A stretch of DNA of 64,000 nucleotides, from the NCBI GenBank assembly GCA_944391615.1, contig CALXUE010000006.1, positions 17,665 through 81,664 of the forward strand, written 5' to 3'. Position 1 is the stretch's first letter. Each line of letters opens with the position of its first letter. Below, one piece after another: positions 26,630 through 57,977 of this stretch. The stretch is from an uncultured Alphaproteobacteria bacterium. Lineage in GTDB: Bacteria > Pseudomonadota > Alphaproteobacteria > RF32 > CAG-239. The translations under genes were made by a program, and so were the position numbers. Below the pieces are notes generated by a model. The model saw only the letters and a list, made by a program, of their open reading frames with translations. It made no database searches and was not told where the DNA came from.

Positions 26630-26741
26630 AATAAGTTGAAAAAGTAAACAAAAATTTAATCGATAAAGAAAAATAACTTGAGAAGAATAAAATTAGCAAA
26701 AAAAGATTGCCTAAACCCTTGTCAATCCTTGAAAATTTCTA

Positions 26742-26770
26742 TTTACAGCTTTTTATTTCTGTGCTATAAT
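26742..26770 (+). promoter_or_regulatory. Sigma70-type promoter of cassette 1 (TTTACA-17 bp-TATAAT) with an upstream CCTTG direct repeat
   Basis: The -35 TTTACA is at 26742-26747 and the -10 TATAAT at 26765-26770. The same 100-bp block is found at 39702-39799 and, inverted, at 35690-35788. CCTTGtcaatCCTTGaaaa lies at 26717-26735. Confidence 0.7.
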
Positions 26771-26806
26771 ACGAGTCGTGGAGATAAGTTGAAAGGTGTT
26801 TCGAAA

Positions 26807-27646: not shown

Positions 27647-27691
27647 TCAGGGAAAGAGAGAGAAAGTTTAATTATTATTTAGGAGGAGAAA

Positions 27692-28489
27692 ATGAGAAAG
27701 TTTTTATTATATTCATCGGCTTTGGCGTTAGGTTTGAGCGGGGTGGCTGAGGCGGCCTGCATCCAAACACCAACGTGTTCATCTTTGGGCTACACCTCAA
27801 CTTCATCTTGCACCGGCGGAACCAAATGCCCCTTTGGCAATTACTGGAACTGCACCGCAGCTGACTTAAATAATAAGATTACGGAACTTGAAACCCAAAT
27901 CACTGAACTCAAAAAAGAAATGGTAATGTCTAACTGCCAAGTTGGTGATGTTTTGTATTCGGATATGACGATTAATCCTGATTATGTTAGTGGCAAAACA
28001 CCAATCGGCGTGGTATTTGATTGTCGAAAAAAATTAGCGATAGGGTTGGAGCAATCTGACGAAGAGTGGTCAATTACCGATGATTTTGATGTTCCTGGGG
28101 TTGAAAATATTACAGATACAACGAAGGTTTTGCAAGATATGGATGGAAAAAAGAATACGAGTACAATATTAGCCTATTGTAAAACAAAAGGGAAGCGTTG
28201 TCCGGCGTTTGAGTATGTGAATAGTTATAAAACAGAAGGAACTCAAGCAGGGGATTGGTACTTACCATCTATGGGAGAATTATATGCGATATATGGTAAT
28301 ATGGGTGTATTGAATGTTACGTTAATAAAAATAGTGGCAACAAGGCTTGTTGCAAGTTACTATTGGTCTTCTTCCGAGTATTCAAGCACCGACGCGTGGA
28401 ATTTGAGGTTCAGTAGCGGTAACGTGAACTACAACGATAAGTACCACAGTGCCGATTTCGGTTACGTTCGCCCAGTCCTAGCTTTTTAG
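27692..28489 (+). CDS. Cassette 1 gene B: secreted protein with a Cys-motif N-module, a coiled coil and a DUF1566/Fib_succ_major-like C-terminal domain
   Basis: It has an RBS GGAGGAG and a signal peptide (GVAEA/AC). The N-module is AACIQTPTCSSLGYTSTSSCTGGTKCPFGNYWNC, followed by a KITELETQITELKK heptad. The C-terminus PIGVVFD...AGDWYLPSMGELYAIYGN...YYWSSSEYSSTDAWNLRFSSGNV...YVRPVLAF resembles the Lcl C-terminal/DUF1566 pattern. Confidence 0.75.
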   Translation: MRKFLLYSSALALGLSGVAEAACIQTPTCSSLGYTSTSSCTGGTKCPFGNYWNCTAADLNNKITELETQITELKKEMVMSNCQVGDVLYSDMTINPDYVSGKTPIGVVFDCRKKLAIGLEQSDEEWSITDDFDVPGVENITDTTKVLQDMDGKKNTSTILAYCKTKGKRCPAFEYVNSYKTEGTQAGDWYLPSMGELYAIYGNMGVLNVTLIKIVATRLVASYYWSSSEYSSTDAWNLRFSSGNVNYNDKYHSADFGYVRPVLAF

Positions 28490-33981: not shown

Positions 33982-34797
33982 CTAAAAAGCTAGGACTGGA
34001 CGAACGTACTCGCTAAGGTAGTTCTTATAGTAGTAGTCCACGTATCCGTCACTGAACCTCAAATTCCACGCGAAGTCGCTTGAATACTCGGAAGAAGACC
34101 AATAGTAATTTGCACCAAGCCTTGTTGCCGCTATTTTCCCTAACGCAACATTTAACACACTCATATTACCATATATCGCATATAATTCTCCCATAGATGG
34201 TAAGTACCAATCTCCTGCTTTTGTTCCTTCTGTCTTATAGCTATTCACATACTCAAACGCCAGACAATGCTTCCCTTTTGTTTTACAATAAGCCAATACC
34301 GTACTTGTATTCTTTTTCCCATCCAAGTCTGCTATCGCTAATGTACGGTCTGTTATATTATCAACCCCTGGAACATCAAAATAATCTGGATATGACCAAT
34401 GTTGTTGAGATTGCTCCAACCCTATAGCCAATTTTCCACTATGGTCAAACACCACGCCGATTGGCGTTTTTGACACAACATAATTTGAATTGCACGTCAT
34501 ATCCGAATACAATATATCTCCGACCAAACAGTTGGCGGTTGAAACTTCTTTTTTGAGTTCAGTGATTTGGGTTTCAAGTTCCGTAATCTTATTCGTTTGT
34601 TCTGTAATCTTATCATTTAAATCGCTTGCGGTGCAGTTCCAGTAATTTCCGAAGGGGCATTTTGTTCCACCGGTGCAAGATGAGGTTGAGGTATAACCCA
34701 AGCTTGAACAACTCGGGGTCTGAATACAAGCCGCAAGTACAGTGTCGCTAAAACCAAACACTGCCAAAGCCGATGAATATAATAAAAACTTTCTCAT
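33982..34797 (-). CDS. Cassette 2 gene B (paralog of 27692-28489, about 80% aa identity)
   Basis: It has the same N-module (AACIQTPSCSSLGYTSTSSCTGGTKCPFGNYWNC), coiled coil and DUF1566-like C-terminus ending YVRPVLAF. RBS GGAGGAG. Confidence 0.75.
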   Translation of the reverse strand: MRKFLLYSSALAVFGFSDTVLAACIQTPSCSSLGYTSTSSCTGGTKCPFGNYWNCTASDLNDKITEQTNKITELETQITELKKEVSTANCLVGDILYSDMTCNSNYVVSKTPIGVVFDHSGKLAIGLEQSQQHWSYPDYFDVPGVDNITDRTLAIADLDGKKNTSTVLAYCKTKGKHCLAFEYVNSYKTEGTKAGDWYLPSMGELYAIYGNMSVLNVALGKIAATRLGANYYWSSSEYSSDFAWNLRFSDGYVDYYYKNYLSEYVRPVLAF

Positions 34798-34842
34798 TTT
34801 CTCCTCCTAAATAATAATTAAACTTTCTCTCTCTTTCCCCGA

Positions 34843-35682
34843 TTACTGTTCAAAAGCGCAGTAGTCGCAATAATCGGCACAACCTGTGGCGCAACCCGTC
34901 ACATAATATTTGTTGGAACATTCTTCATAAGAACAGACCGAACACGGCGGGCAGGTGTCATATTCCCCTAAACTCGGGCAAGGCTTGCATGCGCTATACA
35001 TCATATTCGTGCCCGATAAGCACGAGGTTGCTCCGACCTTGCCGCCCATCGAGCCGCAATCTTGATACCCCTCACAAGGGTTAGGCTTAATTTTATACAC
35101 CTCGCCGTTGCAGGATACGCAAGGCGCCCCGTCCGCCACATAGCCATCGGGAATATCTTCTTTTTTGTAGGAATAGCCGTCGCAGTAGTCGCATTGACAA
35201 CTGGCGTAATAACCATCGCCGCATTCTTGCCCCACACCATGATAAGGCTCTTCACATTGCTTATAATTACTGGGACAGTCTTCAATACATTCGGCATAAT
35301 ACCCTTTGGCATACAAACATTCTTTGTTGCCCTTATAGCCATTGGGACAGGTAGTAATGGTATAACCTTCTTCAATACAATCAGTCGGCCCTTTGGGAAC
35401 ATAATCTTCAGGGTTAGATGGATTATTCAAATCTCTGTCAGCGGAAATAAAGTTAACGCCGAAACATTCACCGGTGTCCATAATCCAGCAAACTTGCGCA
35501 ACTTTGATAAACTTATCGGGAGATAAGCCGGAGGCATCAGACAAAAACTGTGTGTGTTGTGTGTTGGTCAAAAAATCCTTGTCTGTTGTCTTGAAATTTG
35601 AAACATCAGCATATACATTATTATAACTAAAAAGCCATAATAAAGCATTGCATGCTGAAAACAAAAAAGTTCTATTTTTCAT
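34843..35682 (-). CDS. Cassette 2 gene A (paralog of 26807-27646, about 95% aa identity)
   Basis: It is collinear with 26807-27646 and nearly identical, including the signal peptide and Cys spacing. It lies downstream of the inverted copy of the promoter block. Confidence 0.75.
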   Translation of the reverse strand: MKNRTFLFSACNALLWLFSYNNVYADVSNFKTTDKDFLTNTQHTQFLSDASGLSPDKFIKVAQVCWIMDTGECFGVNFISADRDLNNPSNPEDYVPKGPTDCIEEGYTITTCPNGYKGNKECLYAKGYYAECIEDCPSNYKQCEEPYHGVGQECGDGYYASCQCDYCDGYSYKKEDIPDGYVADGAPCVSCNGEVYKIKPNPCEGYQDCGSMGGKVGATSCLSGTNMMYSACKPCPSLGEYDTCPPCSVCSYEECSNKYYVTGCATGCADYCDYCAFEQ

Positions 35683-35718
35683 TTTCGAAACACCTTTCAA
35701 CTTATCTCCACGACTCGC

Positions 35719-35747
35719 ATTATAGCACAGAAATAAAAAGCTGTAAA
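35719..35747 (-). promoter_or_regulatory. Sigma70-type promoter of cassette 2 (inverted copy)
   Basis: The reverse complement gives TTTACA (35742-35747), a 17-bp spacer and TATAAT (35719-35724). The CCTTG direct repeat lies at about 35755-35775 on the minus strand. Confidence 0.7.
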
Positions 35748-35846
35748 TAGAAATTTTCAAGGATTGACAAGGGTTTAGGCAATCTTTTTTTGCAAAAAAA
35801 ACGCCCGAGTTTTATCCTCGAGCGTTATAAAAATTATAAATTATGT

Positions 35847-39802: not shown

Positions 39803-40681
39803 ATGAGTAAGCGGAAGTTTATCTTGTTGGCTTCGTTGTCTGTATGCGCGTTTGTTGCGGAGACGGCGCAAGCCGATATTTCTTCTTCAATGAATTATAT
39901 ATTCAAAGATGTTACACTTTTCAACACACTTCACACACATTTATCTTTGAATGGAGCTTTATCTCCACAACAAGTTTCAAAAAATCAAAAATCTTTGGTT
40001 AAGGTAGCCCAAGTCTGCTGGATTATGGACACGGGAGATTGCGCCGGTTTGGACTTTGTGAGTTCGGATATTAATGGTTCGGGCAATAAACCACCGAGCG
40101 AATATGACAAGAAAGGCCCTGAAGATTGTATCAAAGAGGGTTACACCATCACCAACTGTCCGGATGGGCAAAAAGGTGACGGAGAATGTATGTATGCCAA
40201 TGGCTACTATGCCAAATGTATTCCCGACTGCCCGTCATCTTATACCACCTGCACGTCGCCTTATAAAGGGGTGGGGCAAGTTTGTGGGGATGGCTTGTAT
40301 GCGGAATGTTGTCAAGACACTTGTCCGGCAGATTACAAATACACCTTAGGTTCAATTCCTGACGGATATGAGGCGGTTGGAGAACCTTGTGTGCAATGCA
40401 ACGGTAATAACACCACGGCAGTCAAAAAATACAGAGTGAAAGAAAAAGACTGTTCCGGATTTTTGGATTGCGGGACTTTAGGCTGTGAAACAGGGGCAAC
40501 GACTTGTCAATCAGGAAGCGTGGTTAAGTGTTCAAAATGCAAACCTTGCCCGAATTTGGGCTCAGAAAGTGAATGTCCACCATGCACAGTCTGCAGCTTT
40601 GAGGAATGTTCAAACTTATACATCGTCAGCGGTTGCAAAACAAATTGTACCGATTATTGCAACTACTGCGCTTCTGAATAA
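39803..40681 (+). CDS. Cassette 3 gene A (divergent Cys-rich paralog)
   Basis: It has a signal peptide (AETAQA/D), the conserved KVAQVCWIMDTGDC block and the same Cys-repeat architecture, ending CNYCASE. Confidence 0.7.
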   Translation: MSKRKFILLASLSVCAFVAETAQADISSSMNYIFKDVTLFNTLHTHLSLNGALSPQQVSKNQKSLVKVAQVCWIMDTGDCAGLDFVSSDINGSGNKPPSEYDKKGPEDCIKEGYTITNCPDGQKGDGECMYANGYYAKCIPDCPSSYTTCTSPYKGVGQVCGDGLYAECCQDTCPADYKYTLGSIPDGYEAVGEPCVQCNGNNTTAVKKYRVKEKDCSGFLDCGTLGCETGATTCQSGSVVKCSKCKPCPNLGSESECPPCTVCSFEECSNLYIVSGCKTNCTDYCNYCASE

Positions 40682-40722
40682 GGGCAAGAGAGAAAAGTTT
40701 AATTATTATAACGGAGGAGAAA

Positions 40723-42003
40723 ATGAAAAAATTTTTATTATATTCAACCGCATTCGTAGTTTTGAGCGGGACGGCAAATGCAGCCTGTATCCAAACCCCG
40801 AGTTGTGCCAGTTTGGGATATGACAGTAACTCAGCCTGTGAAAATGGTCTAAAATGTCCGTGGGGCAATGCTTGGTATTGCAAAGTCGGAGAATTGGAGG
40901 AAGCAGTCAACAATGCCGAAAAAGCAAAAACTTGTATCCCCGGAGCCGTTTTTAACTCCGATCGTAGTTGTACCGAAAAACAAGAACTTGGCAAAATTCC
41001 GATTGGTGTTGTTGTCTATGCTGACGGCAAAGGCCACGGCCAAGCCATGGCTTTAGAAAAAATAGATATTGTAGCATTAAACAATTATTTAAAAACTGTT
41101 AAATACACAACTTTTTCTAAGTATCCAAATAAATATGCAGTAGAGTATCGTTACACTTATGCTAGACACTCAAGTGGAGATGAAGAATATGTAAAATGGC
41201 CTCAAGAAAAATGTATATCAACAGATGATATATATGTTAAAGGATTGAAAGAGTTTTCTAATTTAGAAGAAGCATCGCTTGAATTTGATAGTAAAAACAT
41301 TACAGCTCAAATACAACAATCACTAAACACAAATAATGCTAAGATTCAACAATATTTTAATACGGCGTCTGCATTAAATTCTATTGTGAATGAATCTAAA
41401 ATTATGGAGTGTAGTCGTTCTAATGTAGTAGGCTATCCATGTTATCTTTACGAGGTTAGTAATAAATCGGAATACTATTGGTATTCAGGTGATGCATCCA
41501 CATCTTTGCTTAAAACCATACAAAAAATAAAAGCTTATAAAACAACAGGAACCTCAGCTGGAGATTGGAATATGCCTGCCCCTGGAATATTTAATTCTAT
41601 AAAAGTAAATTTTGAAAAGATTAAAGAAACTTATGCCTTACTTAATAAAAATTTTAACTATAATCAAATGGTTACAATGGGAATGTATATCAAAAATGCA
41701 GGAGAAAAGACAAATAAAAAATGTACGTTTATGGATGCTAAATTTACGAGTAATGATGGTGATATAGATAAAAATTATCAAAGTTATCAATATGATTCAA
41801 GTTATTCAAGTCCATCAGACACGTACTCTCAGTATTACTATTATTATCTAATACCAACAACAGATTTCAATACTAAATTACCATCTGTTTCAGCGGAAAT
41901 AACATCATATCCAAAATACATAGCATTTTCAAATTCTGCAACGTATGGTACAGCAACCACATCATCAGGAGGAAAGCAAATCTATCCTGTAATTGACTTT
42001 TAG
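40723..42003 (+). CDS. Cassette 3 gene B (divergent, extended paralog with an N/Y/S-rich low-complexity C-terminal region)
   Basis: The N-module AACIQTPSCASLGYDSNSACENGLKCPWGNAWYC and the block PIGVVVY...GTSAGDWNMPAPGIFNSI align to the other B genes. The C-terminus is replaced by a Tyr/Asn/Ser-rich sequence. Confidence 0.65.
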   Translation: MKKFLLYSTAFVVLSGTANAACIQTPSCASLGYDSNSACENGLKCPWGNAWYCKVGELEEAVNNAEKAKTCIPGAVFNSDRSCTEKQELGKIPIGVVVYADGKGHGQAMALEKIDIVALNNYLKTVKYTTFSKYPNKYAVEYRYTYARHSSGDEEYVKWPQEKCISTDDIYVKGLKEFSNLEEASLEFDSKNITAQIQQSLNTNNAKIQQYFNTASALNSIVNESKIMECSRSNVVGYPCYLYEVSNKSEYYWYSGDASTSLLKTIQKIKAYKTTGTSAGDWNMPAPGIFNSIKVNFEKIKETYALLNKNFNYNQMVTMGMYIKNAGEKTNKKCTFMDAKFTSNDGDIDKNYQSYQYDSSYSSPSDTYSQYYYYYLIPTTDFNTKLPSVSAEITSYPKYIAFSNSATYGTATTSSGGKQIYPVIDF

Positions 42004-42014
42004 AAAAAACACAA

Positions 42015-42040
42015 AAGCCCGTTTCTAAAAAGAACGGGCT
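42015..42040. terminator. Hairpin terminator after cassette 3 gene B (convergent with the T4CP gene)
   Basis: AAAGCCCGTTTCT-aaaa-AGAACGGGCTTT. Confidence 0.6.
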
Positions 42041-42064
42041 TTATCTTATGACCAAAGGATAACT

Positions 42065-44272
42065 TTATTCTTCATCCTCATCGGCATCGTCGCCGTTATC
42101 TTCTTCAGGATTATAGTCAATACCGAGTTTGGCTAACATATCTTCATTAATATCTTCACGTTGCGCCACAATCCAATCCGGCACGCAAGGCGCAGGCGGT
42201 AAAGCGGCCAAAGCTTTCATTTTCTTATCCAAATACCAACGTGGAGAATCAGCCATAATCGGCCTGTCAATGGAACCTTGCATCAACACCACTTGCTTAA
42301 GCATAGGCAAGCTTAAAAGTTGCGTAGTCGAAATAACTGACGTTCCCTGCAATTGGTAAGACACATTTTTAGAAAATGGATTCGTACCTTTACCCAATCC
42401 CTCTGTTTTTGAAAAAGATGTTGTCTGCACCGTCTTGTTACCAATCATTTTAGAGAAACGTTGCGCAGTCACCTCGTTGTTTTGAGAAAGAATAACTTTA
42501 CAAGCCGTGGTAGAAATCACGGTTTCCAAATCATCCTTACCATACTTTCCGGAAATTTGCCCCAAGTCTTGCCCGATAAGCAAATACGACACTTTTTGAC
42601 CACGACCGACGGCCGGTCCGTCAATAATAGCGCGAAGCTTAGGCATTTGCGGAAACTCATCCAGCACAAACAAAGCAGGGAACGGCCCCATCACGCCATC
42701 AGACTTGTTGTGGAATTTTGGCGGATTCGCAATCAAATAAGATGACATCAATTCAATAAACGTTCCCGAAATAATGTTCAATGCGCGCGCATCAACCTGG
42801 TTAACGGACAAATAAACCGAAATCGGCTTCCACTCACCAGTCACAGGGTCTTTCATTCCGCGCAAATCCTTAAATTGCAAATCAGAAAAACTCGTGCGCG
42901 AAACCACAGCCGCGTTTTTGAAAATACCAATACCGGCCAAACCGGTAGACAACACGGAACCACGCTCTTTATCCGGCATGGCGCTGAGCTGGCTGAGTTC
43001 AACAATACACCGTTGTGAGTAACCAAACTTTCTGGCTTCGGTAATGGCTTCTTCCAACATATTGCGCATCGGGTCAGCCATAGCGGCCATCTGGTCGCCC
43101 TCATCCAAGCGGCGCTTAATTTCTTCCGATTGTTTGATTTGAGCTTCGGTAATCCATTCCAAAATCATGGCCAAGCAGGCTTCATGCCCAATCCATTTCT
43201 CCGGCAACAAAGCCCATGAGCCAATGGGCAAATAGTTATCAATGGTGAGTCTGCCGGCTCTCAGATCTTGAATAGCTCTGGCCGCCATTGGATCACGCAT
43301 CTCAAGATAATAGCTTTCCAACACACGCTTATCTTCATCATCCATTTTACCTTCATAAATACGCCCGATAAAATAGTCATTAGCGCGTGCTTTTTCACAT
43401 TTAAAAGACACAAAGTGAATAAATCCTGTCAAAGCGGCACGACCTGTTGTTGACCAGTGCGGGTCTGCTCCCCCCTTAGGCTCTTCCACCAAAATATTGC
43501 ACATAGAGTCAATATACATATCTCGGTCAGGTCCCGGAGCAGGCAATGCATTAGGCGAAAGCGGGTTCCAACTCGGATAATAAATACCTTCAGCCGGATT
43601 GTCTTCCGCACCCCAGTTAATCACAAATACAGGGCCGTCTTTGGCACGAGCTCCGGTTGTGGAATAGCACAACTCAGGCTTTGGGTCGTTTACGATAATA
43701 CTCAGGCCGTGTGAGTTAAAAATAGTCGGAATCACCACGCCGGCAGTTTTACCGGTACCCGGAGGCGCACAGCAAAGAGTTGCCAGAGTTTCTTTAAGCA
43801 TAAGCATTTTGCCGTTAAACTTTCCGACCACTTGACAAAAGCCGTCAAAACCAAGCAACGGCATTTTTTTAATATCTTTTTCAGTGGCCAATCTTGCCGC
43901 ACCATGAATATTAGATTGAAAACGATAAGGATTTGTCAAAAAACCAATCGTCAATCCCACCGGAAAGCTTATAAACGGCAACACCGGCACCCACAAACTG
44001 ACCGAAAAAGGTCCGTTATAATGAGTCAGTTGTTGAAACCAACTCCAATAACGAGAAGTCAAATAAGAAGGGTCGTTAAAAACAGCCTGCAAAAAGCGAT
44101 AAGCAACATCCATGCTTGTTTTGGAAATTCCGGCCCCGATAAGATAACCGATAGGCAGCGAAAAAACAGCCAAAAAAATCGTCAACACCAAAGTGACAAT
44201 AGCGGAAATAACCATCCACTGCACCGCATTGTCATATTCTTCCCATTCTTCACCGCGTTCTTCAGACATCAA
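42065..44272 (-). CDS. Type IV secretion coupling protein (VirD4/TraG/DotL family ATPase)
   Basis: It has N-terminal transmembrane helices and the T4CP signature HGAARLATEKDI (GSARWA-like). Walker A is CCAPPGTGKTAGVVIPT and Walker B/DEF is LFVLDEFPQMPKL...IGQDLGQI. The C-terminal tail is acidic (DNGDDADEDEE). Confidence 0.8.
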   Translation of the reverse strand: MMSEERGEEWEEYDNAVQWMVISAIVTLVLTIFLAVFSLPIGYLIGAGISKTSMDVAYRFLQAVFNDPSYLTSRYWSWFQQLTHYNGPFSVSLWVPVLPFISFPVGLTIGFLTNPYRFQSNIHGAARLATEKDIKKMPLLGFDGFCQVVGKFNGKMLMLKETLATLCCAPPGTGKTAGVVIPTIFNSHGLSIIVNDPKPELCYSTTGARAKDGPVFVINWGAEDNPAEGIYYPSWNPLSPNALPAPGPDRDMYIDSMCNILVEEPKGGADPHWSTTGRAALTGFIHFVSFKCEKARANDYFIGRIYEGKMDDEDKRVLESYYLEMRDPMAARAIQDLRAGRLTIDNYLPIGSWALLPEKWIGHEACLAMILEWITEAQIKQSEEIKRRLDEGDQMAAMADPMRNMLEEAITEARKFGYSQRCIVELSQLSAMPDKERGSVLSTGLAGIGIFKNAAVVSRTSFSDLQFKDLRGMKDPVTGEWKPISVYLSVNQVDARALNIISGTFIELMSSYLIANPPKFHNKSDGVMGPFPALFVLDEFPQMPKLRAIIDGPAVGRGQKVSYLLIGQDLGQISGKYGKDDLETVISTTACKVILSQNNEVTAQRFSKMIGNKTVQTTSFSKTEGLGKGTNPFSKNVSYQLQGTSVISTTQLLSLPMLKQVVLMQGSIDRPIMADSPRWYLDKKMKALAALPPAPCVPDWIVAQREDINEDMLAKLGIDYNPEEDNGDDADEDEE

Positions 44273-44290
44273 TCAATCCTTTAAGCACTT

Positions 44291-45655
44291 TTAAGCAAGG
44301 TTACGTACAATTTTTTTAATTTTTTCAAAGTCCTCTCTGCCGATAGGTTCCACAGCATCCGGCAAAGTTTTAGCAAAGAGTTTAATTTCTTTAGGCGTGC
44401 CTCTATCAATACGTGTCACATTCACCTTCAAATCGTTCCACACATCAAACATATCTTCAGCATTAATGATATTACCGATAGAAACCACCACAAAGGCCCC
44501 AACATTAAACCTCATACCTTGTTCATCAAGGGTTTCTGAAAGAACCCTGCGAGCAATATCAACTTTTCGCACCGGAGAAATTCTGTGGCTGCTTTCCGAA
44601 AACCACAAAGGCTCTTCATCATTAAATCTTTCTTCATCAGCCAACCAGTCACCTGGCTCTTTGTCAATCAAGCACAAAACAAGTTGATTTTTAGCCACAC
44701 AAACAAAGTCAATCAAATTTCCCTTAAACATAACGCCGTTAATCGTTTCAAAACCGTGTTGTCTAATAATATCAAACACAGAACTTCCACTGCCTTTCAT
44801 AGCGGCTGACTGAGTACTTTTGGATGTTGCCGGCAAATTCTGATTATCACGGTTTTTATTGTTGCGAGGTCTGTTTTCTCTAGACTCTCGAGGAGAAATA
44901 TCGCGATTATTATCTTTTTTCTGGGGTAAATTTTTCTTAAAATTATTATCAGTCTTTCTCTCAACCGGAGCTTGAGGTTTTGTTTCTTCTTCAGACTTTG
45001 AAAAATCAAAGTCATCAATATTAAAGTCAAAATCATCATCTTTGCTGTCCATGTCAAACAAAGAATGACTAAATTGCTTTGTTTCCTGAGGCTTGTTTTC
45101 AACAACGGGAATACTTTTTTGTGCGGGTATAATGCTGGGCGTAACACTAGGTGTAACTGTTGCGGAAGAAGCAAGAGTTGAGCGATTCTTGGTTGCAATC
45201 AAGCTGGTCGCATTTTCAGGCTCGGGGCGTTCGTCAAGGGGTAAGCGCAAACTTCTGGGACGCACTTCTTTATAAGATTTTTTCTTTTTAATATTTTTCA
45301 TACCGGCAGAAGTCGTAATGATTTTAACCGGCCTAAAGAAAAATTGCTTAAATATCTTCCACGGATAGGAAGCCGCTTTTACAAACAATTTTTCCCATTT
45401 AACCATGCTAAGTGCAGCCCAACCGCACAACCATAAAGGAATAAAGGTTAAGATAATCAACACAAAGGCCCATTCTTTAGGTGTATTAATAACCCAACCG
45501 GAAAGCCACAAATTCCAAGCATGACTCCAGTGTGAGGATTGAAACATGTCAAAATGCCAGTTTCTGAGCATAATAACACGAACCCCTTCAATGAAGAATA
45601 AACTCCAGAAGAGGCCGACGCATAAAATTCGTGTTAAAATGACCAACGGTTTCAA
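44291..45655 (-). CDS. Hypothetical membrane protein upstream of the T4CP gene (Trp-rich N-terminal membrane module paralogous to 45716-46201)
   Basis: The N-terminal hydrophobic helices carry the IPLWLCGW motif, followed by a basic low-complexity linker and a C-terminal globular domain. It lies 18 bp upstream of the T4CP gene. Confidence 0.45.
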   Translation of the reverse strand: MKPLVILTRILCVGLFWSLFFIEGVRVIMLRNWHFDMFQSSHWSHAWNLWLSGWVINTPKEWAFVLIILTFIPLWLCGWAALSMVKWEKLFVKAASYPWKIFKQFFFRPVKIITTSAGMKNIKKKKSYKEVRPRSLRLPLDERPEPENATSLIATKNRSTLASSATVTPSVTPSIIPAQKSIPVVENKPQETKQFSHSLFDMDSKDDDFDFNIDDFDFSKSEEETKPQAPVERKTDNNFKKNLPQKKDNNRDISPRESRENRPRNNKNRDNQNLPATSKSTQSAAMKGSGSSVFDIIRQHGFETINGVMFKGNLIDFVCVAKNQLVLCLIDKEPGDWLADEERFNDEEPLWFSESSHRISPVRKVDIARRVLSETLDEQGMRFNVGAFVVVSIGNIINAEDMFDVWNDLKVNVTRIDRGTPKEIKLFAKTLPDAVEPIGREDFEKIKKIVRNLA

Positions 45656-45715
45656 AGCATCAAACCCTTAATTAAAATATGACATGTAAGATAGCACAAC
45701 AAAGTTAATAATAGA

Positions 45716-46201
45716 TTATTTTTTTGCATCAGAAATTTTCTGATTAACGGCATCGCGAATTTGTGCCGTAAGTTTGGAATTATCCAAATCTTTTTCAATT
45801 TTTTTCAGTTCATCTTTAATTTCATCTTCTGCAGATTCTGTTTTAACTGAAGTTCCCAAATTTTTCAAGACAATTCTCGCAGTATTTTGTTCATATTCGG
45901 CAATTTTTTGGGCCGAATACCAATCAAAAGGTTTGGCCAAAAGTGCCATAATTTTAATTTTGAGAGCTTTTCTCCATCCCCAAATCCAAATTGGCAAAAT
46001 TGCAATAAGGATAAGAACAAAAACATAATCGGCAAACGAGCGAATAACGCCGCCTTCATTCCAAAAGGTGCTCAAGAGTTGCCAGTCTTGAAGCCGAAAC
46101 AAGCTAAAATTCCAAATTCCTTGTAAAATAAAATCAAACACGGAAAATAACAAAACCGACCACACAACGCCGACAAAACAAAATTTAATAAATTTTTTCA
46201 T
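45716..46201 (-). CDS. Hypothetical small membrane protein (paralogous N-module; LPIWIWGW)
   Basis: The start is at MKKFIKF. It has the same W...W..G.VI...FVLI..I.P.W..GW pattern as 44291-45655 and a charged coiled-coil C-terminus. Confidence 0.45.
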   Translation of the reverse strand: MKKFIKFCFVGVVWSVLLFSVFDFILQGIWNFSLFRLQDWQLLSTFWNEGGVIRSFADYVFVLILIAILPIWIWGWRKALKIKIMALLAKPFDWYSAQKIAEYEQNTARIVLKNLGTSVKTESAEDEIKDELKKIEKDLDNSKLTAQIRDAVNQKISDAKK

Positions 46202-46226
46202 GAGCGCTCCCAACAGCAACAAAAAA

Positions 46227-47672
46227 TTATCTGCCGCCTTCATTCAGTCTGTTAAAGTTGTTTTGGGCAACAACCGACTGACGATGAGTCTGATGCTTTT
46301 GTACATAATCGTTAGATAAGCGTGATTTTAATTTGTTAAGTTTGACTCGTCTAACGTTATTTTGCGCACGCGCATTGTCATTTGCAAGTTGCTCCTGCAT
46401 ATAAACATCAAAGGCCTTTGTATTGGCTTTTTCTTGCTGAAGATCATTAAGCAAAGCCTCGTGCATGGATTGTTTGGATCTTGCGCTCATATCGGTTCCG
46501 TCGCGAATTTGCAACAGATTTTGAACATATTTGTTTTCTTTATATTGGCCTTTTGACTTGCGTCCCAGCCATTTCTTTTTGCTATAGCCGACAAAGTTTC
46601 CTTTAACAACATTTTTGCGCATAACATCCAAACCTTTGTCAACATTATCTTTGAGCATAGCACTGGTATTGTAGGCGCTTTTGCCGCTTTTAACCGCATT
46701 TTCAATACTGCGCGCAAACAGAAGATAACCCTCATTTTTAAACTTAGCCATGGCTTTGTCCATGTCTTTAATCTCAGTATCATCAGGATTGCGCATTTTT
46801 GCATCCATAAACATAAGCTGAGCATAGTTATTGGCAAACTGCGCTGCGGCCACACGATAAGAATTATAGGCTTCTTGGCATTTTGCAATATTGTTTGTAT
46901 CTAAAAATTGATTAAGCTTTTTGGGGTCAGCGTTTTGAAGACGAGCTTTTTGTTGAGGCGTTAATCCCTCATAATTTCCTTCACGAATTTTTTGTGCTTG
47001 CTCAATAAGACTTTTATCGTTGTCATACAGAGCTTCTTTAGCGTTAATATCTTCAACAGCCTTCTTTTCGGCATCGTTCATTTTTTTATAAGTGTCATAA
47101 GACTGCAAAGCTTTTTCTGCTGGTTTTTGAGCATCTTGCAAATGTTGCTTGTATTTTTTATCATAATATCCGGACTTAGTCTTTTTGCAACACCATTTCC
47201 AAATTCCGTTTAAGCCGGCGATAAGCCAGTCATTGTACATATAGTCAATAATGTCGCCGGCCTTGAAGATATTATCTTCTTTATCATCATAGTCTGCTCC
47301 GCCGATTTCATCTGGCTTACGTGTGATTGAACCTGTCTTCTTCTCTTCGGGAGTATTTTGTTCTTCGGGAACTTTGACCTGCTCGTTAACGGTTGTTTCT
47401 TTATTTTTTTCGTTAACGGTTGTTTCCTTAACAGCCTCGTTAACGGTTGTTTCCTTAACAGCCTCATTAACGGTTGTCTCTTTAACTTCTTCATTGACTT
47501 CAAGGGTTTCGTCATCGTTTTCATTTACATTGACAGTATCTTGATTTTGAGTTTCTTGAGGATTAGCGTCATTAACTTCCAGTGTGTCCTGATTCGCGTT
47601 ATCTTGCGTCTCATTTTCGCTTACTTCAAAGGTATCATTATCTTTTTTCTCGTCGACCATATGTTTCACCAT
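46227..47672 (-). CDS. Hypothetical protein with an acidic N-terminal repeat region ((V/A)KETTVNE x4) and a Lys-rich helical C-terminus
   Basis: The ORF holds 27-bp tandem DNA repeats at about 47385-47480, an N-terminus rich in E/N/T/D and a K/Q/N-rich C-terminus. No recognised family. Confidence 0.45.
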   Translation of the reverse strand: MVKHMVDEKKDNDTFEVSENETQDNANQDTLEVNDANPQETQNQDTVNVNENDDETLEVNEEVKETTVNEAVKETTVNEAVKETTVNEKNKETTVNEQVKVPEEQNTPEEKKTGSITRKPDEIGGADYDDKEDNIFKAGDIIDYMYNDWLIAGLNGIWKWCCKKTKSGYYDKKYKQHLQDAQKPAEKALQSYDTYKKMNDAEKKAVEDINAKEALYDNDKSLIEQAQKIREGNYEGLTPQQKARLQNADPKKLNQFLDTNNIAKCQEAYNSYRVAAAQFANNYAQLMFMDAKMRNPDDTEIKDMDKAMAKFKNEGYLLFARSIENAVKSGKSAYNTSAMLKDNVDKGLDVMRKNVVKGNFVGYSKKKWLGRKSKGQYKENKYVQNLLQIRDGTDMSARSKQSMHEALLNDLQQEKANTKAFDVYMQEQLANDNARAQNNVRRVKLNKLKSRLSNDYVQKHQTHRQSVVAQNNFNRLNEGGR

Positions 47673-47745
47673 ACATTCATTTGTTTAATCTAACTTGATA
47701 GTAACACAAAAAACAAATTTTGTCCATTATTTTTGTTGAATACAA

Positions 47746-48657
47746 TTAAGCTTTTAGCTTTTTCAAAAAAGCCCCGATAATACGGTTCATCCGAATACCG
47801 TCTTGAGGTTTAACCTTAATAAGCCCAAAGAAACGCGGCTTTATTTTATCCACTTGAATAGGGGCAAAAACAGCCGGATTGTTTGTCAAAACCTTATAAG
47901 CCCCGTCAGCATCCTTGCGAGCGGTTTTAAAATAGTTTTTCACCAGCCTGTCAGCATCAATCGGAAATTTCTTTTTATTGATAGCCTCGATATATTTGTT
48001 CATCAAATTAATACGGCGCTGATGCTGCAAATATATTTCGCGTTCCAAGCGCTTTTTTTCCCGCTTAAGCTTTCGTTCCTTATAAGCAATTTCGCGGCCT
48101 TCCATTTCAATCAACGATTCAACGTAGGAGATAATGGCAAATTGCAAAGTATCATCTTGAAGTTTTTCTGCAAAATCCAGAAGCTGCTCATCAGTAGATT
48201 GCAAAGAAATTTGCCCCACAATATCAGGATAAGCCTTAATCAAAATGTCCCAACCTTTTTCAAAATCTTCGGCAATAATTTTGCCTCTGCTGGGTTTATA
48301 ATGAGGCGTCAAATCCATCGGCTGTAATCTAAACTTACGAAAAGACAAATTCTTGTCCTTTGCAATCATGTTAAGAGCATCTTCAAAATTTCGATAAGCT
48401 TTGAACAGAGCTTTTTCAGACTTGTCAAGAGCATCTAATTCAGGGTCCTCTTCCTCAATGTCGCTGTTGTCTTGCGTAAAATTTGCGACCTGTATGTTTT
48501 CTTGAGGCACCTCGACATCGTGAACAACATCGGTCTTTTTTTGAGAAGAGAGCGTATCATCAATATCAACATCTTCCAGTTGGTTATTGATAAAGTCATT
48601 CAAGAGCTTTTCAAACTCACTGTCATCATTTTCAGCCATGAAGCAATTATCTCCCAA
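47746..48657 (-). CDS. Hypothetical acidic protein
   Basis: The N-terminus is very acidic (ENDDSEFEKLLNDF..DVDIDD) and no domain is recognised. It lies in the same minus-strand gene string. Confidence 0.4.
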   Translation of the reverse strand: MGDNCFMAENDDSEFEKLLNDFINNQLEDVDIDDTLSSQKKTDVVHDVEVPQENIQVANFTQDNSDIEEEDPELDALDKSEKALFKAYRNFEDALNMIAKDKNLSFRKFRLQPMDLTPHYKPSRGKIIAEDFEKGWDILIKAYPDIVGQISLQSTDEQLLDFAEKLQDDTLQFAIISYVESLIEMEGREIAYKERKLKREKKRLEREIYLQHQRRINLMNKYIEAINKKKFPIDADRLVKNYFKTARKDADGAYKVLTNNPAVFAPIQVDKIKPRFFGLIKVKPQDGIRMNRIIGAFLKKLKA

Positions 48658-48660
48658 AAA

Positions 48661-48954
48661 TTATTCAAGAACGATGCGCAAAACTTTTTGCTGAGTTTTG
48701 GGGTCAAAAACCACGATTCTATCAGCTCTGCCCCCGTCCTTCACCAGAAAATAAATATACCCGTTATGTTCTAACATAGAGTTAATAGAACTTCCGAAAG
48801 GCTCTTTAAGATGAACAGTCTGCATGTTTTGAGGAGAATTGGCAGAATTATTTTTGAGTTTCTGATAAATGATGGTAGCGGCACTCAAAATACCAAAAAC
48901 CAACAAAAAAGAAAGAAAAGCCACCAAAATTTTCAAAAGCTTAAGTTTATCCAT
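48661..48954 (-). CDS. Hypothetical small signal-anchored protein
   Basis: The probable start is at MDKLKLLKILVAF (Met39 of the tracked ORF), which avoids overlap with the rluD start. It has a single N-terminal transmembrane segment and is the first gene of the minus-strand string. Confidence 0.35.
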   Translation of the reverse strand: MDKLKLLKILVAFLSFLLVFGILSAATIIYQKLKNNSANSPQNMQTVHLKEPFGSSINSMLEHNGYIYFLVKDGGRADRIVVFDPKTQQKVLRIVLE

Positions 48955-49022
48955 AATGATTTTCCTTGCAAAAATTAAAGCATAGAGTATTTTTATCATA
49001 AATGCAAAAATAGGATTTGTAA

Positions 49023-50012
49023 ATGGATAAAGAGGAACAATCATACACAAGCCCCCCGGTAGAAGCAAAGGACAAAGGCCTTCGGCTTGATAAATATCTG
49101 GCCAAAAGTTTTTCAGACTTTTCGCGTGCGCAGATTCAACGGCTGATATCGGAAGGAAACGTCTGCTTGGATGATACGGTTATGATAGACAATTCCTTTA
49201 AGGTTAGGGAAGGAGACAGCTATCAAATAACGATTCCCGAGGCCAAAGAGGCCGCCCCCCAGCCCCAAAACATTGCATTGGATATTCGCTATGAGGATGA
49301 TGACTTATTGGTTGTGAATAAACCGGCAGGTATGACAGTTCACCCCGCTCCCGGAGCTTATGATAAAACCTTAGTAAATGCATTGCTCTATCATTGCAAA
49401 GATAATCTGTCAGGCATCGGAGGTGTGAAGCGTCCAGGCATTGTGCATCGTATAGATAAAGAAACCAGCGGCCTGTTGGTTGTTGCCAAAACAGATATGG
49501 CGCACAGAGGCTTGAGCGAACAATTTGCGGTACACAGCATCGAAAGAACATATTATGCGTTTACCTATGGCCAACTTCAACCATTAAGCGGCACGATAGA
49601 GGGCAACATCGGCCGCAGTCCTTATGACCGCAAAAAAATGGCAATTGTGCCAACCGGCGGCAAAGAAGCCGTCACACATTATAAAACTATAGCCTGCTAT
49701 AAAATGTGGGCATCTGAAGTTCAGTGTAATTTAGAAACAGGCCGCACCCATCAAATCAGAGTGCACCTGTCATCCAAAGGCTGTAATCTGATAGGAGATA
49801 AGGTATACACCAAAAATCACAAAACATCTCTGGCCATACCGCAAGGATTAAAGTTCTATCTTAATGACTTTCCCAGACAGGCTTTGCATGCCGCAACATT
49901 AGGGTTCATACATCCCCGCACGGGACAATACCTTTCATTTACGGCCGAACTTCCGGAAGATATGAAAAATCTGAAAAACGAATTGCTCCGCTGGACAAGT
50001 ACAAATTATTAG
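49023..50012 (+). CDS. rluD: 23S rRNA pseudouridine synthase, RluA family (RluD-like, with an S4 domain)
   Basis: The S4 domain (LRLDKYLAKSFS..SRAQIQRLI) and the catalytic HRIDKETSGLLVVAKT (RluA-family Asp motif) are present. Confidence 0.8.
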   Translation: MDKEEQSYTSPPVEAKDKGLRLDKYLAKSFSDFSRAQIQRLISEGNVCLDDTVMIDNSFKVREGDSYQITIPEAKEAAPQPQNIALDIRYEDDDLLVVNKPAGMTVHPAPGAYDKTLVNALLYHCKDNLSGIGGVKRPGIVHRIDKETSGLLVVAKTDMAHRGLSEQFAVHSIERTYYAFTYGQLQPLSGTIEGNIGRSPYDRKKMAIVPTGGKEAVTHYKTIACYKMWASEVQCNLETGRTHQIRVHLSSKGCNLIGDKVYTKNHKTSLAIPQGLKFYLNDFPRQALHAATLGFIHPRTGQYLSFTAELPEDMKNLKNELLRWTSTNY

Positions 50013-55066: not shown

Positions 55067-56293
55067 TTAATAAAATAAATAAGCCATAAAAATAGCCACG
55101 ATGATTCCCGCCAAATCAGCTAAAAGAGCACAAGGCAAAGCCGCCCCGGTTTGAGAAATTTTCACGGCCCCGAAATAAAGAGCCAAAACATAAAATGTTG
55201 TTTCGGTAGAGCCTTGAACAATACAAGAAACAAAGGCCGGAAAAGAATCAGCCCCAAAGTTTTGCATTGTCTCAATCATCATGGCGCGGGCCCCGCTGCC
55301 AGACAGAGGCTTCATTAAAGCAGTCGGCAAAGCGGCAACAAAATCCGTGTCACATCCCACAAAGGCAAAACATTTTTCCAACCCCAAAATCAAAAAATCC
55401 AAAGCACCGGATGCCCTTAAAACGGCAATAGCCGTCAACATGGCCACCAAATAAGGAATAATTTTAACGGCGACCGAAAAACCTTCTTTTGCCCCAAGAA
55501 TAAAAGTATCATAAACATTAAGCTTTTTTCTGAGACCGAGGATAATAAATCCCACAATAATGGCAATCAAAACAAAATTGCTAAAAGCCGAAGAAATAAT
55601 CAGTCTCTTATCTACCGGCAAACCATAAAATCCTAAAGCCAAGGCAAGAATAAGTCCGATAAATATTAATAAATAGCTTAATACCACTTTATTAAAAATA
55701 TTAAGCTTTTGAGAAAAAGCAACGGCCAAAAAACCAACCAAAGTCGAAGCAAAAGTCGCAATCAAAATCGGCACAAACACCGCGCTGGGGTTAAGAGACC
55801 CAAGCTCCATGCGATACATCAAAATCGTAATCGGAATAAGCGTCACTGCCGAAGCATTCAAAACAATAAACATAATCTGGGCTGAAGACGCGCTGTCTTT
55901 ATGCGGATTAATATCTTGGAGCTGTTCCATAGCTTTAAGCCCCATAGGCGTTGCAGCGTTATCCAACCCCAGCATATTAGCCGCCATATTCATGATTATG
56001 GACCCAAAAGCGGGAGAATTTTGCGGCACATCCGGAAAAATTTTAGCAAACAAGGGACGCAAGAGTTTGGCGAGCCCATCAGTAGCACCGGATAATTCAG
56101 CAATTTTTAAAATCCCCAGCCAAAAACACAACAAACCAGTCAAATTAATAGAAATAGAAAAACCCAGTTTAGCCGCATCAAACAAACTTTTGCCCAATTC
56201 ATTCCAAATCAAAAAATCGGCAAAACAAACCGATTTAATTCCGGCACAAACAAAAGCAACAATAAAAAATCCGGCCCAAATCCAATTTAACAT
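55067..56293 (-). CDS. Nucleoside-recognition (Gate) domain membrane protein, SpmA/SpmB-like
   Basis: It has a polytopic membrane topology with duplicated gate-like halves. It is co-directional with, and abuts, the upstream membrane-protein genes. Confidence 0.5.
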   Translation of the reverse strand: MLNWIWAGFFIVAFVCAGIKSVCFADFLIWNELGKSLFDAAKLGFSISINLTGLLCFWLGILKIAELSGATDGLAKLLRPLFAKIFPDVPQNSPAFGSIIMNMAANMLGLDNAATPMGLKAMEQLQDINPHKDSASSAQIMFIVLNASAVTLIPITILMYRMELGSLNPSAVFVPILIATFASTLVGFLAVAFSQKLNIFNKVVLSYLLIFIGLILALALGFYGLPVDKRLIISSAFSNFVLIAIIVGFIILGLRKKLNVYDTFILGAKEGFSVAVKIIPYLVAMLTAIAVLRASGALDFLILGLEKCFAFVGCDTDFVAALPTALMKPLSGSGARAMMIETMQNFGADSFPAFVSCIVQGSTETTFYVLALYFGAVKISQTGAALPCALLADLAGIIVAIFMAYLFY

Positions 56294-57444
56294 TAATAGC
56301 TCATAATTTGTTGAAAAGAAGCATTTGGTTTAAGCAAAATCGTCTCAGCCATTTCATCAAAAAGCGCGCAAGCCTCAGCAGTAGAAATAAGCTTAGACAT
56401 ATCATTATTCCATCTCACATTTTGCGGTTCAGTATTTTGGTTAACGGCAACAAGCTCAATAATAGCCTGCCGGCGAATATTTTCAATATCCACGGCAATA
56501 CTGTCCTCAAGCTTACGCCCTAAGCGAGATTTTGCTTGGTTATAAAAAGTTTGTGTTGTCTCACCATATTGGCTCAAATCTTTTTCAATTTTAGCAAGAT
56601 GCGTAGCAAACTTAGAGCGAAACACTTCAGGATAAATCACGAGATTATACCCTTGTTTGTGGCAATAATCTTGATACCCGTACAAATGTCTGGCGGCAGT
56701 ACCGGCAGCAAGAGAGAGTTTTTGATTCTGAGAAACGGTCGGAATTTCAGAAACGTTATTGCCTTCAGCCGGATGAGAAAAACCATATTTTACAAGCCCT
56801 CCCAATAAAACCAACAAGAGCAAAAGACAAGCCACAACCATATCTTTGTGCAGGCTATAAGCTTTTTTTCTGAGTTGGAAAGACTTTTCGAGATTAACGC
56901 GCACCATTTCAGCGTTAAAAGCCAAGAACCAAATGATTGATGCGACAATTAAACCGCATAAAAAGAGCAAAGCGCTCCATCCGTCATAAAACACATCAAC
57001 AAGAGTCAATAAGGCGAATATAGCGCAAGCCACAACATAAGCTGCCCGATATCCGCGAAAAACAAACCACATTAAAACAAGCGTAAGAGCAACCACCCAT
57101 GCAGCGGATAAAGAAGATTTCCAAACAAAACCAATGCCCAAAACAGCAATTGCCACAAGGCTTAAGAGACGAAATTTATAAAACAAATTAGAATCAAGCA
57201 CCTTTTTCCGATACACGGCGGAAGAGTTCAAAAAGCGAGCAATTTTTTTCACAAACCAATTGGCACAAAAGGAGCAATAAAAAGCCAAAAACCTTTTATA
57301 AAAAGAGTTTATGAACTGAGCAAAGGGCTTTGATTTAAGGGTCAAAAAATCCACAAAAGAATCAATTTTTCGCCACATGGAATATACCTTCAAAAAACAA
57401 CAAAAGCTAAAGATAGTAATATCAAAAAGGTAAAACCAAGTCAA
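56293..57444 (-). CDS. Hypothetical polytopic membrane protein
   Basis: It has multiple hydrophobic helices and no recognised domain. It is the third gene of the minus-strand string 60034 to 55067. Confidence 0.4.
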   Translation of the reverse strand: MTWFYLFDITIFSFCCFLKVYSMWRKIDSFVDFLTLKSKPFAQFINSFYKRFLAFYCSFCANWFVKKIARFLNSSAVYRKKVLDSNLFYKFRLLSLVAIAVLGIGFVWKSSLSAAWVVALTLVLMWFVFRGYRAAYVVACAIFALLTLVDVFYDGWSALLFLCGLIVASIIWFLAFNAEMVRVNLEKSFQLRKKAYSLHKDMVVACLLLLLVLLGGLVKYGFSHPAEGNNVSEIPTVSQNQKLSLAAGTAARHLYGYQDYCHKQGYNLVIYPEVFRSKFATHLAKIEKDLSQYGETTQTFYNQAKSRLGRKLEDSIAVDIENIRRQAIIELVAVNQNTEPQNVRWNNDMSKLISTAEACALFDEMAETILLKPNASFQQIMSY

Positions 57445-57467
57445 TTGAGATAAAAAGTTAATGACAG

Positions 57468-57977
57468 TTATTTGCTCGTGTTATCACTTAGCTCGAGAGA
57501 GGAGCCAGCGATATCATCGCCCCATTCTTCACGTAATTTGTTAAGTTTGGCATCAATTCTTTCGATACGTTTCTGAGCCGAAATTTTATAAAAATAAGCA
57601 TAGAGATTAGGGAGTTCGGAATACACCAAAACGCCAATAGCGGCACATCCGAGCATAACAATCAGCATAAAGATGTTATCGGCAATATTGTTAGTTAAGC
57701 CAAGAGAAAATTTAGAAAGTAAGCCGAAGAGATAAAAGAACACCCCCGAAATATTAAAACAGCCGATAATCAGTTGCTTATCATAATTTTGCCGATCGGT
57801 ATACATAATAGTAATGGTAGGCAGCAAGCCGAAGATGAGCAACAACACAATCGGAAAAGAAATAAAAATCAAGAAGATAAGCAAAGCAAAAAGCAAAAAT
57901 TTCTGCAAAAAGGATAAGTTTTTGTAAGCTTTAGCAAATTGAGGACCTTTATTAATTTTAGAATTTTTCTGATTCAT
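57468..57977 (-). CDS. Hypothetical membrane protein
   Basis: The start is at MNQKNSK and overlaps the upstream stop (ATGA-type coupling). It has four hydrophobic segments. Confidence 0.4.
   Translation of the reverse strand: MNQKNSKINKGPQFAKAYKNLSFLQKFLLFALLIFLIFISFPIVLLLIFGLLPTITIMYTDRQNYDKQLIIGCFNISGVFFYLFGLLSKFSLGLTNNIADNIFMLIVMLGCAAIGVLVYSELPNLYAYFYKISAQKRIERIDAKLNKLREEWGDDIAGSSLELSDNTSK

Follow-up and report, generated by a model that had tools for sequence, protein, structure and literature searches.

What does a type IV coupling protein serve when no genes for a secretion channel lie beside it? The question is raised by a 64,000-nt stretch of DNA from an uncultured alphaproteobacterium (hereafter, the window), in which a gene for a VirD4/TraG-type type IV coupling protein (T4CP) closes a minus-strand locus at 42065–49068. 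Coupling proteins decide what type IV secretion systems (T4SSs) export, and dedicated receptor complexes outside Legionella are little known. We favour, with moderate confidence, a reading in which the locus provides a T4SS of the VirB/VirD4 type, scattered over the chromosome and vertically inherited, with its substrate-receptor module in the inner membrane, the channel genes being encoded elsewhere.

The coupling protein and its chromosomal setting

Judged by its sequence, the product of 42065–44269 is a genuine and intact VirD4/TraG-type T4CP. It matches the Pfam family T4SS-DNA_transf (PF02534) at 193.4 bits (8.9e-57; cut-off 20.1), with further matches to TraG-D_C (PF12696; 79.6 bits) and TrwB_AAD_bind (PF10412; 61.9 bits). 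The hallmarks that had been recognized in a first-pass annotation of this DNA can all be read in the sequence: N-terminal transmembrane (TM) segments, placed by hydropathy at about residues 20–38 and 90–112, the motifs HGAARLATEKDI, PPGTGKTAGVVIPT and VLDEFPQ, and an acidic tail. Among 81 orthologues of the T4CP, the Walker A motif PPGTGKT is invariant and the Walker B motif VLDEFP nearly so; the tail has a median of 12 aspartate or glutamate residues among its last 25. None of the NCBIfam cut-offs for equivalogs or subfamilies is reached by the protein, including those for VirD4 (PRK13897 and PRK13850), IncP or Ti TraG and F TraD (best scores, 141 bits against a cut-off of 250 for the CD1115 family and 117 against 728 for VirD4), which argues that it belongs to a divergent, separate subfamily. 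A phmmer search against PDB sequences returned no match. An FtsK/SpoIIIE translocase, an identity named beforehand as one that would speak against a T4CP, was rejected, because no FtsK family is among its Pfam or NCBIfam matches. The start is likely to be the ATG at 44269, which gives a protein of 734 aa rather than the 735 aa first called; in an exact-sequence look-up, the ATG form was matched and the 735-aa TTG form was not, so that the former is the sole form on record in public assemblies.

To describe the distribution of this protein, we used one genome per species and found 402 genomes with a T4CP relative; the best 80 of these 402 were analysed. Across these best 80 species, which are represented by metagenome-assembled genomes from human, rabbit, chicken, deer and ruminant gut, the T4CP is 75–93% identical. 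The identical protein is present on more than 20 metagenome contigs, and T4CPs that are 83–84% identical carry the labels 'Azospirillum sp. CAG:260' or '47_25', names given to uncultured gut Alphaproteobacteria. Wherever the locus was long enough, the 80 species loci had the same gene order, with rpoH and rluD on one strand and the genes for a DUF6476 protein, p297, p481, p161, p454 and the T4CP on the other. In the window, these features are as follows.

42065..44269, minus strand: T4CP, VirD4/TraG-type, 734 aa, assigned by Pfam; nucleotide-binding and all-alpha domains between two N-terminal TM helices and an acidic C-terminal tail
44291..45655, minus strand: p454, conserved T4CP partner; Trp-rich two-TM anchor, disordered middle and PD-(D/E)xK-like C-terminal domain
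45716..46201, minus strand: p161, small inner-membrane protein; Trp-rich two-TM module as in p454, then a charged helical tail
46227..47672, minus strand: p481, acidic, repeat-bearing and mostly helical protein with no TM segment; start uncertain
47746..48639, minus strand: p297, soluble protein; acidic N-terminal helix, disordered acidic linker and helical-bundle domain
48661..48954, minus strand: DUF6476 protein (Pfam PF20082), 97 aa, one TM helix; first gene of the strand, divergent from rluD
48995..49023, minus strand: sequence resembling a promoter, TTTACA-17-TATGAT, ahead of the first gene; 10/12 matches in a consensus scan, weak evidence, as the total of such sites in the region is not above shuffled expectation

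A scan of the operon for repeats, promoters and terminators found no oriT-like structure and no notable internal terminator. The rest of the window is housekeeping in nature (ribosomal protein L19, murD, uvrC, gcrA, motAB, aspS, secA, dtd and corA).

Of the seven proteins compared, the T4CP is the best conserved. Median identity across the loci is 81% for the T4CP, 72% for RpoH, 64% for RluD, 49% for p454, 46% for p297 and 32% for p161; p481, also at 32%, is evolving fast and was detectable by tblastn in only 29 of the 80 species. In 67 of 67 loci, the identity of the T4CP exceeds that of both RpoH and RluD. The flanks consist of housekeeping genes without integrase, relaxase or mating-pair formation (Mpf) genes, and the position of the T4CP gene is fixed in the 80 species. 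The conserved synteny and a conservation above that of RpoH and RluD point to a vertically inherited gene of the core chromosome, not to a module of an integrative and conjugative element (ICE), and the T4CP is kept by very strong purifying selection. We rejected an ICE or mobilisable element on the basis of the housekeeping flanks, the fixed position and this conservation. The earlier view that the T4CP does not sit in an adjacent conjugative element therefore holds, as housekeeping contexts are found both in the 80 species genomes and in 80 further metagenome loci of Alphaproteobacteria from gut and rumen.

Neither precomputed Pfam annotation of equivalent contigs nor tblastn with an alphaproteobacterial VirB set (VirB proteins from the operons of the nearest plasmid T4CPs) revealed VirB4, VirB8, VirB9, VirB10 or VirB11 in the window, in agreement with the first-pass annotation, and tblastn gave no match in the first 90 loci either. 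An informative relative is locus L155 (53.7% GC; T4CP 62% identical), where the module has the order u371, p358, T4CP, HNH-like and SUKH-like. On its minus strand, L155:860-4083 encodes two VirB8 proteins, which score 76.6 and 41.3 bits in Pfam, as well as a VirB9/CagX protein (47.9 bits) with a C-terminal SPOR domain. These VirB genes lie on the strand opposite to the T4CP gene and 6–9 kb from it, with esterase and DEAD-box helicase genes intervening, and no relaxase or integrase is in view at this locus. A bitopic open reading frame (ORF) that follows the VirB9 gene, possibly VirB10, runs off the locus. Given that the same module has two VirB8 genes and a VirB9 gene 6–9 kb away, it is doubtful that the T4CP is an orphan: at least one genome with the module has VirB core genes, and they are duplicated and detached from the T4CP. 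The genes of the T4SS core probably lie at other sites in these genomes.

This arrangement can be compared with two known ones. The nearest plasmid T4CPs, which are 27–33% identical over 92% of the length and belong to P-type T4SSs, such as those of alphaproteobacterial megaplasmids (Sphingosinicella p1), share the TM helices and the nucleotide-binding, all-alpha and TraG-D_C domains. They end canonical virB8-9-10-11-virD4 operons with a relaxase nearby, whereas the T4CP described here is chromosomal, stands apart from VirB genes and is preceded by p454. The Rickettsiales vir homologue (rvh) T4SS is a chromosomal, vertically inherited P-type system that is split over several loci and has duplicated components. 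The duplicated VirB8 beside VirB9 in L155, detached from the T4CP, resembles it. By contrast, the Rickettsiales virD4 stays joined to virB8-11, whereas the T4CP gene considered here stands apart from every VirB gene, and we know of no p454-like partner in Rickettsiales.

The p454 partner and the two-gene core

Nearly always, the T4CP gene is preceded by one for a p454-like protein. A metagenome scan with the T4CP alignment added 80 loci, and a census with hidden Markov models (HMMs) covered all 160, counting loci with at least 1.5 kb of upstream sequence for p454-like genes and at least 6 kb for p297-like genes. Of the genome loci, 77/77 have a p454-like gene upstream of the T4CP, as do 61/62 of the metagenome loci; for a p297-like gene, the counts are 70/71 and 36/42, respectively. 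The sole p454 exception is the very AT-rich L102:8741-13765, in which the T4CP lies between recF and a dnaQ-like exonuclease gene.

The pairing extends to distant lineages. A profile search with the p454 alignment across 1.8 billion representative proteins returned 420 clusters, and we inspected the loci of four divergent members. One contig (L098, P0439) ends right after the p454-like gene and is uninformative on pairing; in all three informative loci, the p454-like gene directly precedes the T4CP, and the housekeeping genes around the pair differ from locus to locus. Counting L155 with these three, four lineages beyond the 80 species, with T4CPs 48–62% identical, carry the pair in four different housekeeping neighbourhoods. 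In L097 (28.5% GC; T4CP 49% identical) it is flanked by bamD and thyX, in L100 (41.5% GC; 48% identical) by dsbA/accBC and other housekeeping genes, and in L092 (38% GC; 59% identical) the order is RHH_4, p369, T4CP, HNH-like and SUKH-like. The RHH_4 gene of L092 (8137-8496), of the ribbon-helix-helix (RHH) type, directly precedes the pair, and an ankyrin-repeat gene is nearby; proteins of the RHH type typically serve relaxosomes as accessory factors.

Because the pairing of a p454-like gene with the T4CP is all that is kept in distant lineages, the operon is a lineage-specific elaboration of a two-gene core. The six ORFs first described as an operon do stand head to tail on the same strand with the boundaries then assigned, the second membrane protein (45716-46201) being called as 161 aa, but as a conserved unit they reduce to the p454-like protein and the T4CP. 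Upstream of this pair, this lineage adds p161 and the soluble proteins p297 and p481, which are acidic or helical. The product of the first gene matches DUF6476 (PF20082; 26.9 bits, cut-off 24), so that the five upstream genes are not all uncharacterised, as had been claimed, although the remaining partners are, and are unusual. The DUF6476 gene is absent from the T4CP neighbourhood in distant lineages, and the membership of its product in the functional unit is doubtful.

The architecture of p454 was derived from an alignment of 70 sequences and an AlphaFold2 (AF2) model. Residues 1–106 comprise a Trp-rich two-TM anchor and an amphipathic helix, with a conserved inter-helix loop (W33, F35, D36, H42, W43 and W50). 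A disordered linker of ~180 residues (about 110–290) follows, in which KKKKSYKE(I/V)RPRS and FDHSLFxFDDxxDDFDFNFDAFD are conserved. Residues 293–454 are modelled as a compact domain with a predicted local distance difference test score (pLDDT) of 90–96, and contain the invariant block DxxxGDWLADEERFNDEEPLWFSESSHRISPVR. In the model, this C-terminal domain has the order alpha-beta-beta-beta-alpha-beta that defines the PD-(D/E)xK core, and its fold is restriction-endonuclease-like. Within the T4CP-linked p454 family, D316 is nearly invariant (at least 90%) and D331 is invariant, with a lysine at +1 from D331, not +2. We found no Pfam or NCBIfam match for p454, and profile searches with p454 and p297 against PDB sequences gave noise only. 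On the strength of the model, p454 is a previously undescribed membrane-tethered nuclease-fold protein.

The C-terminal domain is not confined to p454. A near-identical GDWLADEERFNDE.PLWFSE loop is present in large STAND-like or TIR proteins and in AAA+ ATPases that bear this domain, indicating an unnamed, mobile domain that has no Pfam family. More distant relatives of the domain occur in unrelated contexts, with P0506 encoded beside topoisomerase, UvrD and HU genes and P0478 beside a gene for an FtsH-like AAA protease.

Accessory partners and candidate substrates

As the first-pass annotation had proposed, the two membrane proteins have a Trp-rich N-terminal module in common (p161 against p454, BLASTP 31% identity over 67 aa, E = 3e-11), and the TM module of p161 is also seen by hydropathy. 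In L155, a degenerate form of the p454 C-terminal domain persists in u371, the gene at the p161 position. Given this and the shared anchor module, p161, seen in 78/80 of the genome loci, can best be read as a tandem paralogue of p454 in truncated form. In p297, the acidic N-terminal helix, EDDEFERLLNxFI, is conserved, and the helical-bundle domain includes a helix of 60 residues; the p297 model (pLDDT 84.7) consists of helical bundles with no informative structural likeness. The p481 protein matches no Pfam or NCBIfam family. Four 27-nt tandem units at 47382-47516 encode its (K/A)ETTVNE(A/E)V repeats, and its length is 465, 474 or 477 aa on near-identical contigs and 465–481 aa overall between strains; given this range, repeat number is polymorphic among near-identical strains.

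The two membrane proteins had been likened to DotM/IcmP, an analogy that we do not retain: p454, p161 and p297 have no sequence or fold likeness to DotM, DotN, IcmS or IcmW. What the locus shares with the Legionella DotL-DotM-DotN-IcmSW-LvgA complex is the idea of a T4CP ringed by dedicated membrane and soluble adaptors, with acidic recognition motifs, but the T4CP here is of the VirD4 type, not the DotL type, and its partners differ from those of DotL.

In many relatives, candidate substrates are encoded on the other side of the T4CP. On the same strand and directly downstream, an HNH-like and a SUKH-like gene form a pair in 56/126 loci (HMM census, 23/70 genome loci and 33/56 metagenome loci; for example, L063:12153-13300, L025:12230-13297, L092:11992-13073 and L155:12322-13812), and this synteny is kept down to 59% T4CP identity. 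The HNH-like protein (185–208 aa) starts with MWEWS and has a conserved C terminus, PENYNxHxKIPxDFGG....N.xL..THPxH..xH, in which H125, N140, H150 and H154 are invariant. The sole PDB alignment of its profile is to the pyocin AP41 DNase, on the H-GG-N-H-H motif, and is not significant (E = 0.55). The SUKH-like protein (~148 aa) has a weak, below-cut-off match to SUKH_6 (E = 0.0026). By sequence, the pair in these relatives looks like a DNase toxin and its immunity protein; it is the best candidate for an effector/immunity pair and may point to contact-dependent antagonism. The X-T4SS of Xanthomonadales is a bacteria-killing chromosomal VirB/VirD4 system that pairs VirD4 with effector/immunity genes, and the toxin-like HNH (DNase-type) and immunity-like SUKH genes beside virD4 in relatives resemble this arrangement. 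The likeness is partial, as the pair is missing from this window and, unlike typical polymorphic toxins, is syntenic across its range.

The paralogous cassette proteins encoded convergently to the operon had also been put forward as substrates, a proposal that fared less well. The nearest cassette is separated from the T4CP gene by 61 nt (42004-42064), not 20 bp. The cassette proteins have Sec-type signal peptides, vary between strains with an identical T4CP and are absent beside the T4CP in most related species, and we consider these Cys-rich, strain-variable proteins unlikely T4CP substrates. The cassette genes lie at 39803-42003 (plus strand), 26678-28489 and 33982-35760, and some of their Cys-rich, signal-peptide-bearing products have weak Lcl_C matches. 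Among strains with an identical T4CP (L001, L002, L004 and L009 compared), the cassettes encode proteins of 279, 417 or 426 aa, or are replaced by a transposase, and on contig L009, secA and two cassettes are connected with rpoZ-relA, not with the T4CP. These differences and the L009 junction suggest recombination or assembly breaks at the paralogous cassettes.

Elsewhere in the window, a 685-aa protein is encoded at 57977-60034 (minus strand), with 169-aa and 361-aa proteins downstream (56293-57992); none has a Pfam match. The block at 56293-60034 is another conserved set of unknowns, beside a Gate-domain transporter gene.

Weighing the explanations

If the locus is the receptor module of a scattered T4SS, its parts could act together as follows. 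The T4CP would form a hexamer in the inner membrane, and p454, as well as p161 through the shared Trp-rich anchor, would dock on the TM region of the T4CP. The nuclease-fold domain of p454 would then lie in the cytoplasm beside the T4CP ATPase, a topology suggested by the positive-inside rule, given a basic N terminus and KKKKSYKEIRPRS after TM2. Tethered in this way, the domain may bind or process the substrate, for example a DNA end or nick, in the manner of MOBC relaxases and gonococcal TraI; alternatively, it may recognize a protein substrate. The T4CP hexamer would feed the substrate into a VirB-type channel, the presence of which in this genome we infer. MOBC relaxases (pAD1 TraX and CloDF13 MobC) have a PD-(D/E)xK-related fold with an acidic metal site, and TraI of the gonococcal genetic island is a membrane-associated relaxase with a disordered middle that clusters with TraD and with Yaa, a small protein of the inner membrane (PMC12857230, PMC6736028). 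Compared with these proteins, p454 has a true two-helix anchor and no detectable sequence relation, the canonical catalytic motif is not conserved across its domain family, and its locus has neither an oriT nor a mobile-element context.

Several observations weigh against the receptor-module reading. A VirB gene lies within 10 kb of the T4CP in only 1 of ~170 loci, L155, which is itself a distant relative (~54% GC, with a T4CP only 62% identical to that of the window). The HNH-like/SUKH-like pair is absent from the window. In the wider family of the p454 domain, D316 and K332 vary, and what is invariant is the acidic loop GDWLADEERFN.E.PLWF.E...SP. The same domain is found between TPR and Roc-COR-TIR modules in P0445 and P0461 and ahead of AAA+ in P0500 and P0508, and it has no relative by tblastn among 72,556 plasmids. 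Because the canonical PD-(D/E)xK catalytic pattern is not kept in the wider family, any nuclease activity is putative, and the Roc-COR-TIR and AAA+ occurrences are as compatible with sensing or binding as with catalysis; the absence of plasmid relatives argues against an ordinary relaxase family.

A T4SS-independent inner-membrane machine, in which the T4CP and p454 would process or pump DNA or another polymer without a VirB channel, with possible roles in DNA export or uptake or in housekeeping DNA handling, would account for the lack of VirB genes in the 64-kb window and near the T4CP in every locus but L155. A conservation above that of RpoH, unusual for an accessory secretion part, is in its favour, as are the constant nuclease-fold partner, the second nuclease-type (HNH-like) gene that often follows the T4CP, the DNA-binding RHH_4 gene that precedes the pair in L092 and the placement of the AT-rich L102 T4CP between recF and the dnaQ-like gene. 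We nevertheless regard this machine as unlikely. Two VirB8 genes and a VirB9 gene are found near the same module in L155, scattered T4SS genes are known in Rickettsiales, so that local absence says little, and the canonical catalytic residues are not conserved in the family of the p454 domain. To our knowledge, moreover, no T4CP works without a T4SS. Less likely again is the strongest version, in which the T4CP and p454 would be a self-contained device for nucleic-acid processing and translocation, serving a near-essential core function of gut Alphaproteobacteria without a VirB channel. The locus could also be a domesticated mobilisation module for DNA transfer and replication (Dtr), with p454 as a membrane-tethered MOBC-like relaxase and the T4CP coupling chromosomal or element DNA, rather than protein, to the cell's own T4SS or to that of a co-resident element. 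The predicted PD-(D/E)xK fold, the invariant acidic D..GDWLADEE block, which can be set beside the acidic DEE metal site of MOBC relaxases (PMC12857230, PMC6736028), the RHH_4 gene upstream in L092, with its fold typical of relaxosome accessory proteins, and the nearest plasmid T4CPs, whose conjugative virB systems comprise a MobA/MobL relaxase, are compatible with such a module. It is improbable, however, given that p454 resembles no plasmid-encoded protein and no Pfam or NCBIfam family, that its domain also occurs in Roc-COR-TIR and AAA+ proteins, that the locus shows no conspicuous oriT-like repeat structure and that vertical inheritance at fixed core positions without an integrase is unlike mobilisable elements.

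Two further alternatives have little to recommend them. Defence against phages or plasmids, by a system that combines a membrane ATPase with nucleases, would fit the reuse of the p454 C-terminal domain in architectures (TPR-Roc-COR-TIR and AAA+) that typify conflict systems, and the HNH-like and SUKH-like genes that adjoin the T4CP in relatives. PADLOC returned no match for the T4CP, p454, p161, p481 or the DUF6476 protein and only a weak Cas4 match for p297 (E = 0.0063); defence islands differ from a locus that is universally present at fixed positions in the core and extremely conserved, and the ATPase is a bona fide VirD4-type T4CP. We consider this explanation very unlikely. An ordinary conjugative or ICE fragment, or its decaying remnant, is suggested by the family of the T4CP, which is typical of conjugative elements (3247/3922 plasmid matches are to conjugative plasmids). 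A gene order with rluD and rpoH that is identical in 80 species, intact motifs at 75–93% identity, flanks free of integrase, relaxase and Mpf genes and a nearest plasmid relative that is only 33% identical make it extremely improbable.

The receptor-module reading thus keeps part of the 'novel coupling-protein subcomplex' that was first proposed: a genuine T4CP with unusual upstream partners remains, and the DotM likeness, the cassette substrates and the six-gene unit do not. Our literature search on secretion systems of RF32, CAG-239 or 'Azospirillum sp. CAG', and on orphan T4CPs, found nothing relevant. Should the T4SS-independent account prove true, it would be the first such role for a VirD4-type coupling protein, and if these genomes contain no T4SS core, the finding would be much more important. 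As it stands, the locus presents a T4CP subfamily that is a fixed part of the core genome in widespread, uncultured Alphaproteobacteria of the human and animal gut, and a concrete candidate for a new mechanism of substrate recruitment. With the HNH-like/SUKH-like pair of its relatives, it hints at contact-dependent DNase delivery by these gut bacteria.

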